This document shows, piece after piece, positions 4,773 through 18,559 of a DNA stretch of 34,113 nt (position 1 is the first letter of the stretch; each line of letters starts with the position of its first letter). Made by a program: the position numbers and the translations under genes. The notes beneath the pieces are model-generated. The model did not search any database and was not told where the DNA came from. It saw only the letters and a list, made by a program, of their open reading frames with translations. This stretch comes from a virus (lineage: Duplodnaviria > Heunggongvirae > Uroviricota > Caudoviricetes), in IMG/VR virus record IMGVR_UViG_2778261575_000003. The stretch is one strand, 5' to 3'.

Positions 4773-4827
4773 AACGGCGGCAGAGCAGTCACGGAGTAAA
4801 ACTGATACCGCCAAACGTCACCAGAAA
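4773..4827 (-). ncRNA. dicF: DicF small regulatory RNA (ftsZ-targeting sRNA)
   Basis: Reverse complement of 4776-4827 reads TTTCTGGTGACGTTTGGCGGTATCAGTTTTACTCCGTGACTGCTCTGCCGCC followed by a U-run, matching the recollected 53-nt DicF; correct position upstream of dicB. Confidence 0.85.
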
Positions 4828-8215: not shown

Positions 8216-8644
8216 GTGGCAAAAGTTTTTACACAAGAAGAGCGGGAAAAAATTAAAGGGCAGGTGGTGGAACTCGTGCGCCAGAGCGGTCGTGAGACGT
8301 TACGGCAACTGGAAGCTAAAACAGGTGCGACAAGATATCTGATGAGCGTTCTTGCCAGAGAGCTGGTTGCCAGTGGCGATGTATACAACTCTGGTTACGG
8401 GTTATTCCCGTCTGAACAGGCCCGTAAGGACTGGCAAAACGCCCGCAAAAAACTCTCGAGGGCAAAGGTGAAGAAACCCGCTGCGGTTGATCCAGACCTT
8501 ATCTGGTCATTAGCTGACGGAGAAATACGTCGTTACGACAGACATCATAATATAATTTGTAGTGAGTGCCGTAAAAGCGAAGTTATGCAGCGTATATTGT
8601 TTTTTTATCAGGGAAATGTTCGATATTTATTGAAGTATCAATAA
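8216..8644 (+). CDS. Hypothetical protein, possible winged-helix regulator; 3' end AT-rich
   Basis: 142 aa, GTG start 4 nt after an AAGGGGG RBS. Last ~35 codons switch to AT-rich codons (…NIICSECRKSEVMQRILFFYQGNVRYLLKYQ), suggesting the native 3' end was replaced at an insertion junction. Confidence 0.5.
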   Translation: MAKVFTQEEREKIKGQVVELVRQSGRETLRQLEAKTGATRYLMSVLARELVASGDVYNSGYGLFPSEQARKDWQNARKKLSRAKVKKPAAVDPDLIWSLADGEIRRYDRHHNIICSECRKSEVMQRILFFYQGNVRYLLKYQ

Positions 8645-11300
8645 CCTATTTAAACATTCCTTAAACTCAGAGTAGACTGGGTTAACAATCTGTTTCAATT
8701 GCAAATTGACAATCTATAGCCAGCGCGACGGGAGTGTTCATGTTTAGTCAGGTTGACATCGGTAGTTTCGGTAGTTTTACGGACCTCAGTTGGAAAAATA
8801 GCCTTAAGGATGCAGGTAACAATGTCCAGAATTTCAAGAGGCTTAACATCCTCTACGGACGGAACTACTCTGGTAAAACTACACTCTCACGAATTTTCCG
8901 CGCTTTGGAAACGGGGCGCATTCCACATAACTACGTGGACCCAAATTTTACTATTCGTGGTGACAAAGGTGATGTGACACAGGTAGGTCTTGCTGGTCAT
9001 GGCTACGATGTTCGCGTCTACAACCGGGATTTTGTGAGCGATAACCTAAACTTCTTGGTCAATCAGACCGACGGCGAGATCAAGACGTTTGCTATCGTTG
9101 GTGAAAAGAATAAAGAAATCGAAGATGCCATTACCGCAATTCAAACTAGGTTAGGCAGTGTTGAATCGAAGGCGGGTCTCCGACATGAGCTTGAAGCTAA
9201 AAAGAAAGAGCGAGATCGAACCAAAGACAATCATAAAACTGCGTCTGATGCTCTAGAGGGCAAACTTCGTTCTCATGCTAACAATAAGATTAAACAGAAT
9301 CGCATCTACGGCCCTGCTGTCTACAACATAGAAAGCATCAAAAAAGACATTGGTTTAGTCAAAAAACCTGGCTTCAGGGCTCTGACAACCGAAGAACAAG
9401 CAGCCAAGGTCAATCTCTTGAAGCAAGAGGCCTTGCCTGATATTAACGATACCGTATCGATAAACCTCAACATCGAATCAATAAGCAAAGAAGCTGAAGA
9501 ACTCCTTTTAAGATTGATTGAGCCTACCCTGCCAATTCAGGAGTTGTTGAATGAGACGGCTCTCCAGATGTGGGTGAAGGAAGGTATACCGCTGCACAAA
9601 GATAAGCGGGACACTTGCGCATTCTGTCGTCAGAATCTTCCTCATGATATCTGGCAGGTATTAGGCTCTCACTTCAGTAAGGAATCCTCGGCTCTGGAGT
9701 CAAGTATCGATTCATGTCTGACTTCTATCACCACCGAAATCCAAGCCATTCCTAACTTCTTGACTTTGACTGGCGATAAATTCTACGCAGAAGAGAAAAT
9801 ATTATTTGAAAACAGCAAGATAGAACTTTCTGAACATCTGAAAGACTACATGCAGGACCTCAAAGCTCTGCAGGCGGCGTTGGATAAGAGAAAGAACGCT
9901 ATTTTTCAGCAGGTTCTCATGCCTGTCTATATTCATAATCCGACAGCAATTCAGCAATGTGTGGGCGACATCAATGCTCTGATCGTCAAAAATAATGACC
10001 GCACAATTTCGCTGGAGAACGATAAAAGCACTGCACGAGAATCTCTCCGGCTTACCGATGTGGCGTCTTTTATCGCAGACATCACCTACGATAATGAATT
10101 CGCCCGTATTGCCAGTCTTAAGTCAGATGCTAACACAGCCAACACTGCCTTTACCGAAACTGAAGCTGAAATTTTTGAACAAGAAACCGAAGTGACCCGT
10201 TTACAGGGGCAGCAGAAGGATGAACGCAAGGGCGCGGAGCGAGTCAATGAGTTGCTCAGCCACTTTTTTGGTCATGACGGCATCGAACTTGAAGCAAAAG
10301 ACAATGTTGAGAATACTTCGGTTAAGTTTGAAGTCACCAGAGATGGCAAATCAGCCTACAACTTGAGCGAAGGAGAATGCAGCCTGATTGCTTTCTGCTA
10401 CTTCATGGCCAAGTTGGAAGAGCCTGAAAGCAAAGGTAAGGATCTGATCATTTATATAGATGACCCGATTTCCAGTCTTGACGGAAATCACATTTTCTTC
10501 ATGTTCAGCTTGATTGAAAGCCTGATTGCGAAACCCATTAAGAATTTAGATGGAACAAACAGCTATCGCTATAAGCAGCTTTTTATATCCACCCACAACC
10601 TAGATTTCTTGAAATATCTGAAGAAAATATCACTTCCTAATGAAAGGAATCATGGTGGATGCCAACATTTAATCGTTGAGAGAAATGGAGGGGCAAGTCA
10701 GATTTCCCTGATGCCTTCATATTTGCGAGACTACATCACTGAATTCAACTACCTGTTTCATCAGATTTACAAGTGCCGTAATCAAGTTGGAGCGAATGAA
10801 TCTCATGAACCATACTATGGATTCGGTAACAACCTCCGCAAGTTCCTTGAGGCATTTCTGTTCTTTAAGTTCCCGCACCATGATGACAAGAACGATGCCT
10901 TTGAACGGATCAAGAAATTCTTTGGCGAAGAGGATTCAACAGCGATAGCTCTTGTGAATAGACTTAACAACGAGTTTTCACATCTCGAATCAATTCCTGA
11001 TCGCGGATTCAAACCTGTGGAGATTCCAGAAATTTCCAAGGTAGCCAACTACGTGTTAGACAAGATTTATGCGTCAGATCCGCATCAATACAATTCCTTG
11101 TTAAAAAGCATTGGCGAACCACCAAGGTTATCTTAGGAAAAAGAGTATTAAGAGTTTTTTACGGTAAGCGAGGTGCTATTCGGATCTGGAATGCACCTCT
11201 CAAACACACCGGATGAGCACTCAATGATGTACGGACAATCGGAACACTCAAAAGAGAGTGGAGCTAAACAGGTATGAATAGTAAATGTCCGCTTCTCGCT
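8530..11300. other. AT-rich accessory insertion (defence moron) within the prophage early region
   Basis: Visibly lower GC and AT-rich codon choice compared with flanking phage genes; contains a single large gene (8740..11136). Confidence 0.6.
8740..11136 (+). CDS. AAA_13-family ATPase with coiled-coil/CxxC insert and C-terminal nuclease-like domain (RloC/PrrC-like anticodon nuclease candidate)
   Basis: 798 aa from ATG 8740 (GGAG 5 nt upstream). Walker A LYGRNYSGKTTLSRI, long charged coiled-coil insert with CAFCRQ, Walker B DLIIYIDDPISSLD, FISTHN, then a ~200-aa C-terminal domain with NNLRKFLEAF...PHH (R-x3-E...H). Confidence 0.75.
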   Translation: MFSQVDIGSFGSFTDLSWKNSLKDAGNNVQNFKRLNILYGRNYSGKTTLSRIFRALETGRIPHNYVDPNFTIRGDKGDVTQVGLAGHGYDVRVYNRDFVSDNLNFLVNQTDGEIKTFAIVGEKNKEIEDAITAIQTRLGSVESKAGLRHELEAKKKERDRTKDNHKTASDALEGKLRSHANNKIKQNRIYGPAVYNIESIKKDIGLVKKPGFRALTTEEQAAKVNLLKQEALPDINDTVSINLNIESISKEAEELLLRLIEPTLPIQELLNETALQMWVKEGIPLHKDKRDTCAFCRQNLPHDIWQVLGSHFSKESSALESSIDSCLTSITTEIQAIPNFLTLTGDKFYAEEKILFENSKIELSEHLKDYMQDLKALQAALDKRKNAIFQQVLMPVYIHNPTAIQQCVGDINALIVKNNDRTISLENDKSTARESLRLTDVASFIADITYDNEFARIASLKSDANTANTAFTETEAEIFEQETEVTRLQGQQKDERKGAERVNELLSHFFGHDGIELEAKDNVENTSVKFEVTRDGKSAYNLSEGECSLIAFCYFMAKLEEPESKGKDLIIYIDDPISSLDGNHIFFMFSLIESLIAKPIKNLDGTNSYRYKQLFISTHNLDFLKYLKKISLPNERNHGGCQHLIVERNGGASQISLMPSYLRDYITEFNYLFHQIYKCRNQVGANESHEPYYGFGNNLRKFLEAFLFFKFPHHDDKNDAFERIKKFFGEEDSTAIALVNRLNNEFSHLESIPDRGFKPVEIPEISKVANYVLDKIYASDPHQYNSLLKSIGEPPRLS

Positions 11301-11493
11301 AAATAAAAGCGGACTAGAAGGTTAGCTTGCATCGGACTTTGCATATTTAAAGAAGTGCTGGTGGTGACTGGTTGCTGTTTTTCATTTCCACAGAACAAAA
11401 TCAGAGAAACTATATCTAATAGTTGCATTGAATCACTGACGAGACAGCCTCATATTTATCAGGACTGGTGTACGTCCAATACAGGAGGTTGTG

Positions 11494-11583
11494 GTGCTGG
11501 TTCTCAAATGTGCGCTGGCTATTGCGGCTGTAATGGCGATTTATTTTCTTGCCATTGTTCTTATGGATCGCCTTTCTGACTGA
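11494..11583 (+). CDS. Candidate small hydrophobic membrane peptide (type I toxin-like)
   Basis: 29-codon ORF (V)LVLKCALAIAAVMAIYFLAIVLMDRLSD starting at GTG 11494 (in-frame GTG also at 11491), 5 nt after a consensus AGGAGG (11483-11488). Below the ORF-track size cutoff. Confidence 0.35.
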   Translation: MLVLKCALAIAAVMAIYFLAIVLMDRLSD

Positions 11584-11794
11584 TTGCATATTGGCGAGGT
11601 AACGGGAGTTAAGTAGAATGCCTGCGGGTGCTTGAGGCTATCTGCCTCGGGCATGAACACCAAAGGCAGATAGAGAAAAGCCCCAGTTAACATTACGCGT
11701 CCTGCAAGACGCTTAACATTAATCTGAGGCTCAATCTATGCTGAACACATGTAGGTTAGCCTCTTACGTGCCGAAAGGCAAGGAGAAGCAGGCT

Positions 11795-11950
11795 ATGAAG
11801 CAGCAAAAGGCGATGTTAATCGCCCTGATCGTCATCTGTTTAACCGTCATAGTGACGGCACTGGTAACGAGGAAAGACCTCTGCGAGGTACGAATCCGAA
11901 CCGGCCAGACGGAGGTCGCTGTCTTCACAGCTTACGAACCTGAGGAGTAA
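11795..11950 (+). CDS. hokD: Hok-family type I toxin (HokD/RelF-like)
   Basis: 51 aa MKQQKAMLIALIVICLTVIVTALVTRKDLCEVRIRTGQTEVAVFTAYEPEE from ATG 11795 with AAGGAGAAG RBS. An in-frame upstream ATG at 11738 gives a 70-aa mok-like extension. Leader hairpins follow, then a terminator. Confidence 0.9.
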   Translation: MKQQKAMLIALIVICLTVIVTALVTRKDLCEVRIRTGQTEVAVFTAYEPEE

Positions 11951-14712: not shown

Positions 14713-15255
14713 TGCTTTAAATGGGGCAATAGAGATATTGAATCTCATCCCGGGATAAACATTGGGAGTTGAAGGTCCACGCGAACCATTTATCCGGCAA
14801 AATTCCACGCGTAATCCTGTGGTAATTTCTTCTGCATCTCGAAGATTGAGAGCTGAAACGTGAAGCTGGGCATCGATACGCCATCGGATGGGAATATAAG
14901 ACCTTTGCTGCTTTTGTAGTCAAAGTTTTTGACAATTCCTGTCATTTTAGGGGACAGAAAAACTCCTTAATACTGATAACCTGGTGCACCATACACACGT
15001 TCCTGGAGAAAACTACTTTGTTGATAGGGTTTAAGGTGGCTGGATGTCTAAAATAAACATTGCTTCATATGTTCAACTATGAGTTAATGACTGCGTCGGT
15101 TTGAAGAACAGACGATATACGAAGTAGTTTACTAAAGCAGTTCTCATTTCAGGTGTTATTCACTTATTCCTTCTTTGAGTCTCTCCAATTAAGTACGAAG
15201 TCGTTTCTGTTATGCAAACCATTTATGCCGAAAGGCTCAAGTTAAGGAATGTAGA

Positions 15256-15471
15256 ATGTCAAATAAAATGACTGGTTTAGTAAAATGGTTTAACGCTGAT
15301 AAAGGTTTCGGCTTTATTTCTCCTGTTGATGGTAGTAAAGATGTGTTTGTGCATTTTTCTGCGATTCAGAATGATAATTATCGAACCTTATTTGAAGGTC
15401 AAAAGGTTACCTTCTCTATAGAGAGTGGTGCTAAAGGTCCTGCAGCAGCAAATGTCATCATTACTGATTAA
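15256..15471 (+). CDS. cspB: Cold-shock protein, CspA family (CspB-like)
   Basis: 71 aa [38 protein letters not shown]... with RNP1/RNP2 motifs; long 5' UTR typical of csp genes. Confidence 0.9.
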
Positions 15472-15752
15472 AATTCATCGCTCGTCTGTATACGATAACG
15501 AAGAAGGCTGATGCCTGAGTAGAGATACGGACAGAGTAGTGAATATTGGATCTCTTTAATAAAAAGTAAGGAGGTCCAATACATGAAACAATGGCCAGCA
15601 TATTTGGCAAAATCTTAATCAGGAAAAGTATGCTAACCATTGTGGTGAAGTGCAGGTTTGCTGCATGAATAGTTTCACAGCAGAAGCTAACTGCTGGCAT
15701 CGCAAAACAAAGTGCGTAAGTGGATGACTCCCACAAAAAGCACCACAATCTC

Positions 15753-17780: not shown

Positions 17781-18142
17781 GGTAATATTAAATCGGAACA
17801 TTTACATCGCGGAATGTAAAATTTAAATAAAAAGGACTCTTCCATGAGCCAAAATTCCTGAAATCTTAAGGGTAAGATAAAAGGTCTTAATCAGAATGAC
17901 ACGTTTTATTAATAAATAAAGCTATTCTTTCATTGCTGTGTTTTTCTTTACAAAAGTAATCCTTGCTATGGGTGGTTAATCATGCGTTAATGGTGTTCTG
18001 GTTTGTTACAAATTTATCTGAAGCAGTCATTGTTATAATTTTATTATTTGTACCTCTTGAGATTTCCTTGTTGGTTTTTCTCTCTGATATTTTTTTTCGG
18101 ACCATTCTGCCCAAGGGCTAATTTCTTCAAAAGGTAATAATT

Positions 18143-18355
18143 ATGTCTAACAAAATGACTGGTTTAGTGAAATGGTTTAACCCTGAAAAAGGTTTTGGTT
18201 TCATCACGCCGAAAGATGGCAGCAAAGATGTGTTTGTCCATTTCTCAGCAATTCAGAGCAACGATTTCAAAACATTAACTGAGAATCAGGAAGTTGAATT
18301 TGGTATTGAGAACGGACCTAAAGGTCCTGCCGCTGTTCATGTAGTGGCGCTTTGA
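18143..18355 (+). CDS. cspI: Cold-shock protein, CspA family (CspI-like)
   Basis: 70 aa [45 protein letters not shown]...; long AT-rich 5' UTR (17790-18142). Confidence 0.9.
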
Positions 18356-18559
18356 GGTAGACAATATTACAAACCATATTCACTTTAGATGCCCGTGTTG
18401 TCATGGTTCCCAGTATAGAACATCATCTTTTGATGTTTCTGACATGAATCCTTTCGGGGCAAAATGTATCTTTTGTAAATCAATGATGATTACATTTGAT
18501 AATATTTCACAATACTTAAATGCCAGCCGTCTGTCGTTGGATTTAAAAAAGTGAAAATG

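Follow-up and report, generated by a model that had tools for sequence, protein, structure and literature searches.

An RloC-like ATPase-nuclease gene in a single-gene cassette of an Escherichia coli lambdoid prophage

The gene and the motifs of its product

The window analysed here, that is, the whole stretch of 34,113 nucleotides (nt) of IMG/VR virus record IMGVR_UViG_2778261575_000003 (Caudoviricetes), is a Qin/Rac-like lambdoid prophage of Escherichia coli. In its early-right region, 3' of cro-like, CII/YdaT-like, O-like and Ren-like/DUF977 genes, an intact open reading frame (ORF) on the plus strand, hereafter the rloC-like gene, translates into a protein of 798 amino acids (aa) (Table 1). 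This protein is RefSeq WP_172825200.1, labelled 'AAA family ATPase', in an E. coli chromosome that is 100% identical. An earlier note, made by reading the sequence alone, had described the locus as an AT-rich insertion in the prophage early region encoding an RloC/PrrC-like AAA_13 ATPase-nuclease. The ORF call and the neighbouring genes bear out the size and the position of the gene, and profile matches, motifs and the predicted HEPN fold support this reading of its product. The RefSeq start is the ATG at position 8740, with a Shine-Dalgarno sequence GGGAG at 8730-8734, 5 nt ahead of it; a GTG at 8734, two codons 5' of the ATG, is a second possible start.

Two profile searches that the earlier note had proposed, against Pfam AAA_13 and against defence-system models, both gave matches over the full length of the protein. 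The match to Pfam AAA_13 (PF13166) runs from one end to the other (profile positions 6-712 of 713) and scores 509 bits, the cut-off being 36, and the PADLOC model PDLC04887 of the PDC-S06 system covers residues 1-794 with 1066.8 bits. The match of the PADLOC PrrC model is confined to the C-lobe of the ATPase (residues 498-629, 53 bits) and, weakly, the P-loop. No specific model for an RloC-like protein was found in NCBIfam. The family has many members: a search at E<=0.001 of a library clustered at 50% identity retrieved 3899 cluster representatives, and most of the best 150 listed are full length, about 780-810 aa.

Conservation was counted on an alignment of 141 full-length representatives that are 33-72% identical to the window protein. 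Invariant, or with a single exception, are G40, K46, C293, C296, S543, G545, E546, D574, D575, D581 and H619, as well as R700, E704, S747 and H748 in the C-terminal domain. The motifs quoted in the earlier note (Walker A, CAFC, Walker B, STHN, LRKFLE and PHH) were all found at the places claimed for them, and its proposal that the CxxC pair resembles a Rad50-like zinc hook holds up well, since both cysteines are invariant and are predicted to lie at the turn of the coiled coil. The proposed triad, R-x3-E followed by a histidine, stands for its first two residues, which belong to LRKFLE (699-704), but the histidine had to be reassigned from PHH (712-714) to the FSH that includes H748. The PHH candidate was rejected: H713 is replaced by D, N, S or F and H714 by T, S, N or K among the relatives, whereas S747-H748 is invariant or nearly so and its spacing fits RloC. 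The C-terminal pattern is thus R700-x3-E704-x43-S747-H748, the last two residues lying in 'NEFSH'. The ratio of non-synonymous to synonymous substitution rates (dN/dS) against homologues is 0.08-0.16; the gene is under purifying selection.

Table 1. Features of the rloC-like gene, its cassette and its flanks, in window coordinates
Feature	Position	Strand	Evidence
Mobile single-gene cassette (leader, rloC-like coding sequence, trailer), ~2.64 kb	8636..~11275	+	Comparative boundaries
Left flank, Ren-like exclusion / DUF977 (LygF) gene	8216..8644	+	phrog_142, 156 bits; RefSeq DUF977 family protein
Conserved 5' leader travelling with the gene	8645..8739	+	Common to window, E. coli island, Klebsiella prophage and Tolumonas
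rloC-like coding sequence	8740..11136	+	ORF, Pfam AAA_13, PADLOC PDC-S06, RefSeq WP_172825200.1
Walker A / P-loop, G40-RNYSGK46-T47	8857..8880	+	G40 and K46 invariant in 141 relatives
Coiled-coil insert splitting the ABC-ATPase head, residues ~123-510	9106..10269	+	AlphaFold helices, Rad50/SMC fold matches
CxxC zinc-hook motif C293-A-F-C296 at the coiled-coil apex	9616..9627	+	Both Cys 141/141
ABC signature L542-S-E-G-E546	10363..10377	+	S543, G545 and E546 invariant
Walker B and D-loop, DLIIYIDDPISSLD (DLIIYIDD575-PISSLD581), residues 568-581	10441..10482	+	D574, D575 and D581 invariant
H-loop / switch histidine S-T-H619-N, residues 617-620	10588..10599	+	H619 invariant
Predicted all-helical C-terminal HEPN-type nuclease domain, residues ~660-798	10717..11133	+	
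R700-x3-E704, triad residues 1-2	10837..10851	+	R700 141/141, E704 140/141
R741-x6-(S747)H748, HEPN Rx4-6H motif with catalytic His	10960..10983	+	R741 134/141, S747 141/141, H748 140/141
Hairpin GAGGTGC...GCACCTC in the trailer, without U-tract	11170..11199	+	Read from sequence
Right flank, hok/sok type I toxin-antitoxin	11626..11950	+	sok 11626-11800, mok/hok ORF 11738-11950

Predicted structure

An AlphaFold model was built from an alignment of 82 sequences (mean predicted local distance difference test score, pLDDT, 84.8). In it, an N-terminal ABC lobe is followed by a long antiparallel arm of helices (~123-510), then by a C-terminal ABC lobe and, from about residue 660 onwards, by an all-helical domain. 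The CxxC motif sits at the turn of the arm, whose long helices span residues 147-184, 314-339, 350-386, 401-447 and 450-492. The top Foldseek matches in the PDB were Rad50 (in Mre11-Rad50 complexes), heads of SMC, cohesin and condensin proteins, Lamassu LmuB and RecN. Searching the PDB by sequence and by profile gave no match at all, or only compositional matches of the coiled coil to proteins such as apolipoproteins, and no solved relative of the rloC-like protein was found there by sequence, profile or fold search.

The earlier note had also called for a comparison of the C-terminal fold with PrrC and RloC. In the predicted model this domain adopts the fold of HEPN RNases and has an Rx4-6H motif, and this fold and motif are those assigned to the PrrC/RloC nuclease by Anantharaman et al. 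(PMC3710099); the predicted fold is thus the one expected of this family and not an unrelated one.

Boundaries, flanks and composition of the cassette

Comparison with other genomes delimits a cassette made of leader, gene and trailer. The left end (8635/8636) is common to lambdoid prophages of Klebsiella (loci L004-L006) and to an E. coli tRNA-Phe island (L002). The Klebsiella prophages, 94% identical, carry the cassette at the equivalent position with homology extending to 11303, and in the island, where it lies beside a DEAD-box helicase gene, homology (87.5% identity) extends to 11268. In an E. coli prophage relative with an empty site (L003), the backbone matches up to 8636 and again from 11284. 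The insertion proposed in the earlier note is therefore real, because the same left end recurs in several contexts and an empty-site relative exists.

Composition, on which that proposal had leaned, was downgraded as evidence. The guanine-plus-cytosine (GC) content of the gene is indeed modestly lower (43.2%) than that of the window (47.9%) and of the flanks (46.6% and 49.7%), but this value is unexceptional within the window, lying at the 19th percentile of all 2.4-kb windows, with AT-richer DNA (34-40% GC) at 15-20 kb. The contrast in codon usage was not borne out: GC at third codon positions (GC3) is 47%, inside the range of the neighbouring genes (43-51%).

No terminal repeats were found at the cassette ends, and transposon-like ends were rejected, only short chance repeats being present. 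Nor is there support for a sigma-70 promoter or an intrinsic terminator belonging to the cassette itself, as consensus scans gave matches at or below shuffle expectation. The island copy (87% identical) preserves the stem of the trailer hairpin through a compensatory change from T-A to C-G.

The left boundary falls 9 nt inside the Ren-like gene (8636-8644), so that the cassette provides its last three codons and stop; in the empty-site relative the Ren-like gene ends in a different sequence. On the right, the sok match (Rfam RF01794, 115.6 bits) is accompanied by a RefSeq hokD, and MokW/HokW are annotated in related phages. This hok/sok locus, directly right of the cassette, belongs to the conserved backbone and also occurs in Stx phages, for instance 933W. 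Comparison of positions 8216-11750 with related phages shows that cargo varies between the Ren-like/DUF977 (LygF) gene and hok: relatives have an acetyltransferase gene, DNA methyltransferase genes or several hypothetical genes in this slot. In the Qin prophage of K-12, relBE lies just upstream of hokD.

The prophage as a whole starts with genes for an integrase and a RecE-like exonuclease, dicB with DicF, the repressor and a cro-like gene. These are followed by a CII/YdaT-like gene, an O-like replication gene, the Ren-like/DUF977 (LygF) gene, the rloC-like gene and hok/sok, and then by rem, DUF968/HNH, a Q-like antiterminator gene, cold-shock genes, lysis genes and terminase. The antisense small RNA DicF (4775-4826, minus strand, Rfam 72.5 bits) adjoins dicB/ydfD, which marks the prophage as Qin-like. 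Two leaders of the cspA thermoregulator type precede cspB and cspI (15095-15487, 159 bits, and 17997-18382, 113 bits); nowhere in the window is the DNA AT-richer than around them (34-40% GC), and the rloC-like gene is far less AT-rich.

Distribution and genomic contexts

The gene was found in 18 of 5426 complete E. coli genomes, compared with 1113 that have the flank. Rather than a core gene of the related prophages, a possibility that the earlier note had named as one that would speak against its reading, it is a rare accessory cassette. Related phages with sequenced genomes have the same LygF and hok flanks but other cargo between them, and none carries the rloC-like gene. Among 50,697 deposited phage genomes it is absent except for 8 distant relatives, and a scan of IMG/VR yielded 5 loci only.

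Neighbouring genes differ in all five contexts compared. The single-gene reading of the earlier note, which had seen no partner gene, holds because no neighbour is conserved, and no restriction-modification genes are present in the window. The Tolumonas auensis copy (L007, 81% protein identity) lies directly 3' of a type III restriction-modification pair. In the region concerned (L007, 1-5807), this pair consists of an N6_N4 methylase and a ResIII helicase, and an AAA_15/AAA_21 and DUF4276 pair also lies 5' of the copy. This locus is a defence-island context and recalls the 'restriction-linked' origin of the rlo name. The Ralstonia copy (78% protein identity) is found in a low-GC island, and distant copies hold 43-48% GC in hosts of very different composition. 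In the Klebsiella prophages (L004-L006, 8713-9870), the cassette is followed by an opposite-strand gene for a protein with both HEPN_Toprim_N and HEPN_RiboL-PSP domains; the slot thereby gains another candidate defence gene of the HEPN type.

Protein identity within the subfamily is unusually high for genes of defence, 76-82% between E. coli and Tolumonas, Ralstonia, Burkholderia, Xanthomonas, Achromobacter and Geomesophilobacter. Such identity across distant bacteria points to a recent, wide horizontal spread under strong constraint. Damaged copies were seen in about 4 of 19 E. coli carriers (ECCHD184, STEC1589/1590 and A23), the lesions being an IS3 insertion, an internal deletion and a 5' truncation; they may reflect a fitness cost of the nuclease.

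These contexts can be set beside published ones. RloC genes are often the sole cargo of integrated phages (PMC3458546), ABC-HEPN proteins, some of the RloC family, occur in prophages (PMC3710099), and a prophage-linked RloC of E. coli APEC O1 is listed in the literature.

Relationship to RloC, PrrC and other ATPase-nuclease systems

RloC was defined by Davidov and Kaufmann (2008) by its ABC-ATPase motifs, a coiled-coil insert with a CxxC motif, and a C-terminal Arg-x3-Glu-x36-52-His motif in which Ser often precedes the His (PMC2610378); published sizes range from 658 to 897 aa. All of these sequence-level features are found in the window protein, together with the predicted HEPN fold, and the x43 spacing between E704 and H748 lies within the published interval. 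Compared with the RloC of Geobacillus kaustophilus (GkaRloC), which together with that of Acinetobacter baylyi was studied in Kaufmann's laboratory, the size (798 against 804 aa), the hook cysteines (C293/C296 against C288/C291) and the triad (R700/E704/H748 against R692/E696/H737) correspond closely. Shared too are the ABC-ATPase motifs, the stand-alone gene on mobile DNA and PDLC04887 as the best PADLOC model. The differences are a low identity (~27% in the comparable region), the fact that the window copy occupies a defined slot in a lambdoid prophage of E. coli, and the unusual conservation of its subfamily, at 76-82% from E. coli to Ralstonia, Burkholderia and Geomesophilobacter.

The GkaRloC reference was an optical character recognition (OCR) copy of the alignment (residues 121-540) in the supplement of the 2008 paper, and is noisy. 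The fragment derived from it (residues ~121-480) is colinear with the window protein (27% identity over 258 aa, 59.7 bits), and its own best PADLOC model is PDLC04887 (162 bits, profile positions 125-485). A database search with this fragment gave nothing at E<=1e-10, the text being noisy and rich in lysine and glutamate. A protein of Burkholderia pseudomallei K96243, an RloC orthologue in Table S1 of the 2008 paper, was available in the same form. Its fragment behaves like that of GkaRloC, and its closest match is a representative of equal length from Burkholderia gladioli, itself 45% identical to the window protein over the full length. Close homologues bear the JGI label 'wobble nucleotide-excising tRNase'.

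The earlier note had left undecided whether the protein is RloC proper or a distinct AAA_13 effector. Because all sequence-level features of RloC are present, and because the GkaRloC fragment finds its best match in the same PDLC04887 model, the question resolves towards RloC, and the window protein is probably a member of that family. Since the GkaRloC fragment matches PDLC04887 best, PADLOC PDC-S06, which is listed as an uncharacterised candidate and is itself a single-gene system matching the window protein in full, includes RloC and may largely correspond to it. On this view both the protein family and the kind of prophage cargo slot are already known, and the gene is an ordinary but well-supported example.

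PrrC, the anticodon nuclease for tRNA-Lys that the prr locus of E. coli encodes, has in common with the window protein an ABC-type NTPase followed by a C-terminal HEPN domain with Arg-Glu-His; R700 and E704 correspond to R320 and E324 of the PrrC triad (R320/E324/H356). However, PrrC proteins measure 341-416 aa and are devoid of the coiled-coil, zinc-hook insert, which is ~390 residues long in the window protein. In addition, PrrC is always encoded inside, and silenced by, a type Ic restriction-modification locus (PMC2610378), whereas the neighbours here are prophage genes and no hsd or other restriction-modification genes occur in the window. An identity with PrrC was rejected on these grounds: insert present, twice the size of PrrC, no hsd locus. 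A tblastn search of plasmids for annotated PrrC returned only matches labelled 'AAA family ATPase'.

P2 Old, PARIS (AriA/AriB) and Gabija also combine an ABC ATPase sensor with a nuclease effector and are borne on prophages or satellites; some are reported to cut tRNA. Their effector is a Toprim rather than a HEPN domain, however, they have no zinc-hook coiled coil, and their PADLOC models give only weak matches to the window protein. Readings of the Old, Gabija or PARIS type were therefore rejected, the matches being confined to the P-loop and the effector being HEPN, not Toprim.

Proposed mechanism and alternative explanations

We consider it likely that a single polypeptide makes up the whole system, with a Rad50-like ABC ATPase as sensor or switch and a C-terminal HEPN domain as anticodon nuclease, in a self-contained prophage cassette. 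The individual steps are taken over from biochemical work on the RloC proteins of these two species, G. kaustophilus and A. baylyi (PMC2610378, PMC3458546, PMC3874168). RloC removes the wobble nucleotide through successive 3' and 5' cuts (PMC3458546), and its nuclease is under the control of the zinc hook and a DNA-dependent ATPase switch and is activated by DNA breaks (PMC3458546, PMC3874168). By analogy, the zinc hook would hold the nuclease off in a resting cell, and it would be turned on when DNA ends or breaks are bound and ATP is hydrolysed. The anticodon loop of the tRNA would then be cut 3' and afterwards 5' of the wobble base, which would remove the wobble nucleotide, and phage tRNA repair enzymes would be unable to restore a tRNA shortened in this way. 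Translation would halt, the infection would abort, and sister lysogens would be protected from superinfecting phages. Because the silencer is internal, such a gene can move alone, which is also the explanation given in the literature for the solitary travel of rloC.

Several points weigh against this interpretation. The link to a characterised RloC goes through the noisy OCR fragment, whose aligned sequence covers the coiled-coil region only. The isolated C-terminal domain does not match the PADLOC PrrC model. A bioRxiv preprint implies that DefenseFinder assigns no known system to an E. coli PDC-S06 protein, which may or may not be the window protein. Both the tRNA cleavage and the anti-phage activity that would be attributed to the window protein and its close subfamily are drawn from analogy. 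No sigma-70 consensus promoter was found in the leader by the consensus scan, and transcription could come solely from the early-right operon after induction rather than take place in the lysogen. Finally, a nuclease triggered by DNA ends may also harm the resident phage at its own induction.

Three other explanations were weighed, and all were judged less likely because the triad is conserved, because the gene also occurs in non-phage contexts, and because an Mre11-like partner is missing. The same architecture might serve another substrate or respond to another trigger, cutting mRNA, rRNA or another site of tRNA without excising the wobble base, or answering to a signal other than DNA ends; the protein would then be an RloC-like abortive-infection RNase and not a wobble-excising anticodon nuclease. 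The identity of only ~27% to the G. kaustophilus protein in the region compared, and the different tRNA preferences already seen in the two characterised RloCs (PMC2610378, PMC3874168), are in favour of such a shift. We nevertheless hold it to be unlikely, as the full triad and its spacing are kept exactly as in RloC, the zinc hook and the ATPase switch residues are invariant, and one and the same PADLOC sub-model gives the best score for the window protein and for GkaRloC. A related idea, distinctly unlikely, is that this highly conserved subfamily, with the same cassette and leader, differs in trigger or target from the two characterised RloCs. In one form of it, for which the chances are similarly slender, the protein responds to superinfecting lambdoid phages through their DNA ends or replication intermediates, and the resident prophage is spared; another, about which we are equally sceptical, has the phage use the gene offensively after induction.

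A role in the service of the phage can also be imagined, either by early-right expression on induction that shuts down host translation or competitors, or as an addiction module that stabilises the prophage. The gene is co-oriented with the replication and Ren-like genes and directly follows them, with no terminator or recognisable promoter between, and the adjacent hok/sok is itself a post-segregational killer. DNA damage induces lambdoid prophages. The same stimulus activates RloC (PMC3874168). This role appears highly improbable to us all the same: the cassette and its leader also occur outside phages, in a tRNA-Phe island and, beside restriction-modification or defence-like genes, in chromosomal islands, they are missing from almost all related prophages and, apart from the 8 distant relatives, from the deposited phage genomes, and a nuclease that removes host tRNAs would halt phage translation too. 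Least credible, and with hardly any chance of being correct, is a Rad50/SbcC-like repair or recombination ATPase of phage replication whose C-terminal domain is a non-catalytic nucleic-acid-binding module. The best whole-model folds in the PDB are indeed Rad50, SMC and RecN heads, and the gene lies next to replication genes. The Rad50, SbcC and SMC proteins share with the window protein the split ABC head, the antiparallel coiled coil and the CxxC zinc hook. Yet they have no C-terminal HEPN nuclease, which is fused here and retains its catalytic residues R700, E704, R741, S747 and H748; Rad50 and SbcC work with an Mre11 or SbcD partner, of which there is no counterpart beside the gene in the five contexts; and the gene is accessory, not core.

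Significance

RloC was described in 2008 (PMC2610378), and to our knowledge published work on it holds no solved structure, no clear natural trigger and no demonstration of phage defence in a native host. The link between PDC-S06 and RloC is useful for annotation, the RefSeq label being merely 'AAA family ATPase', and the copy in an E. coli lambdoid prophage is a convenient genetic system in which relatives with an empty site are natural controls. Beyond annotation and this genetic system, the locus offers what was to be expected, a known defence gene in a known cargo slot. If its trigger or target did turn out to be altered, a defence family without direct native anti-phage demonstration would gain a tractable E. 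coli model.

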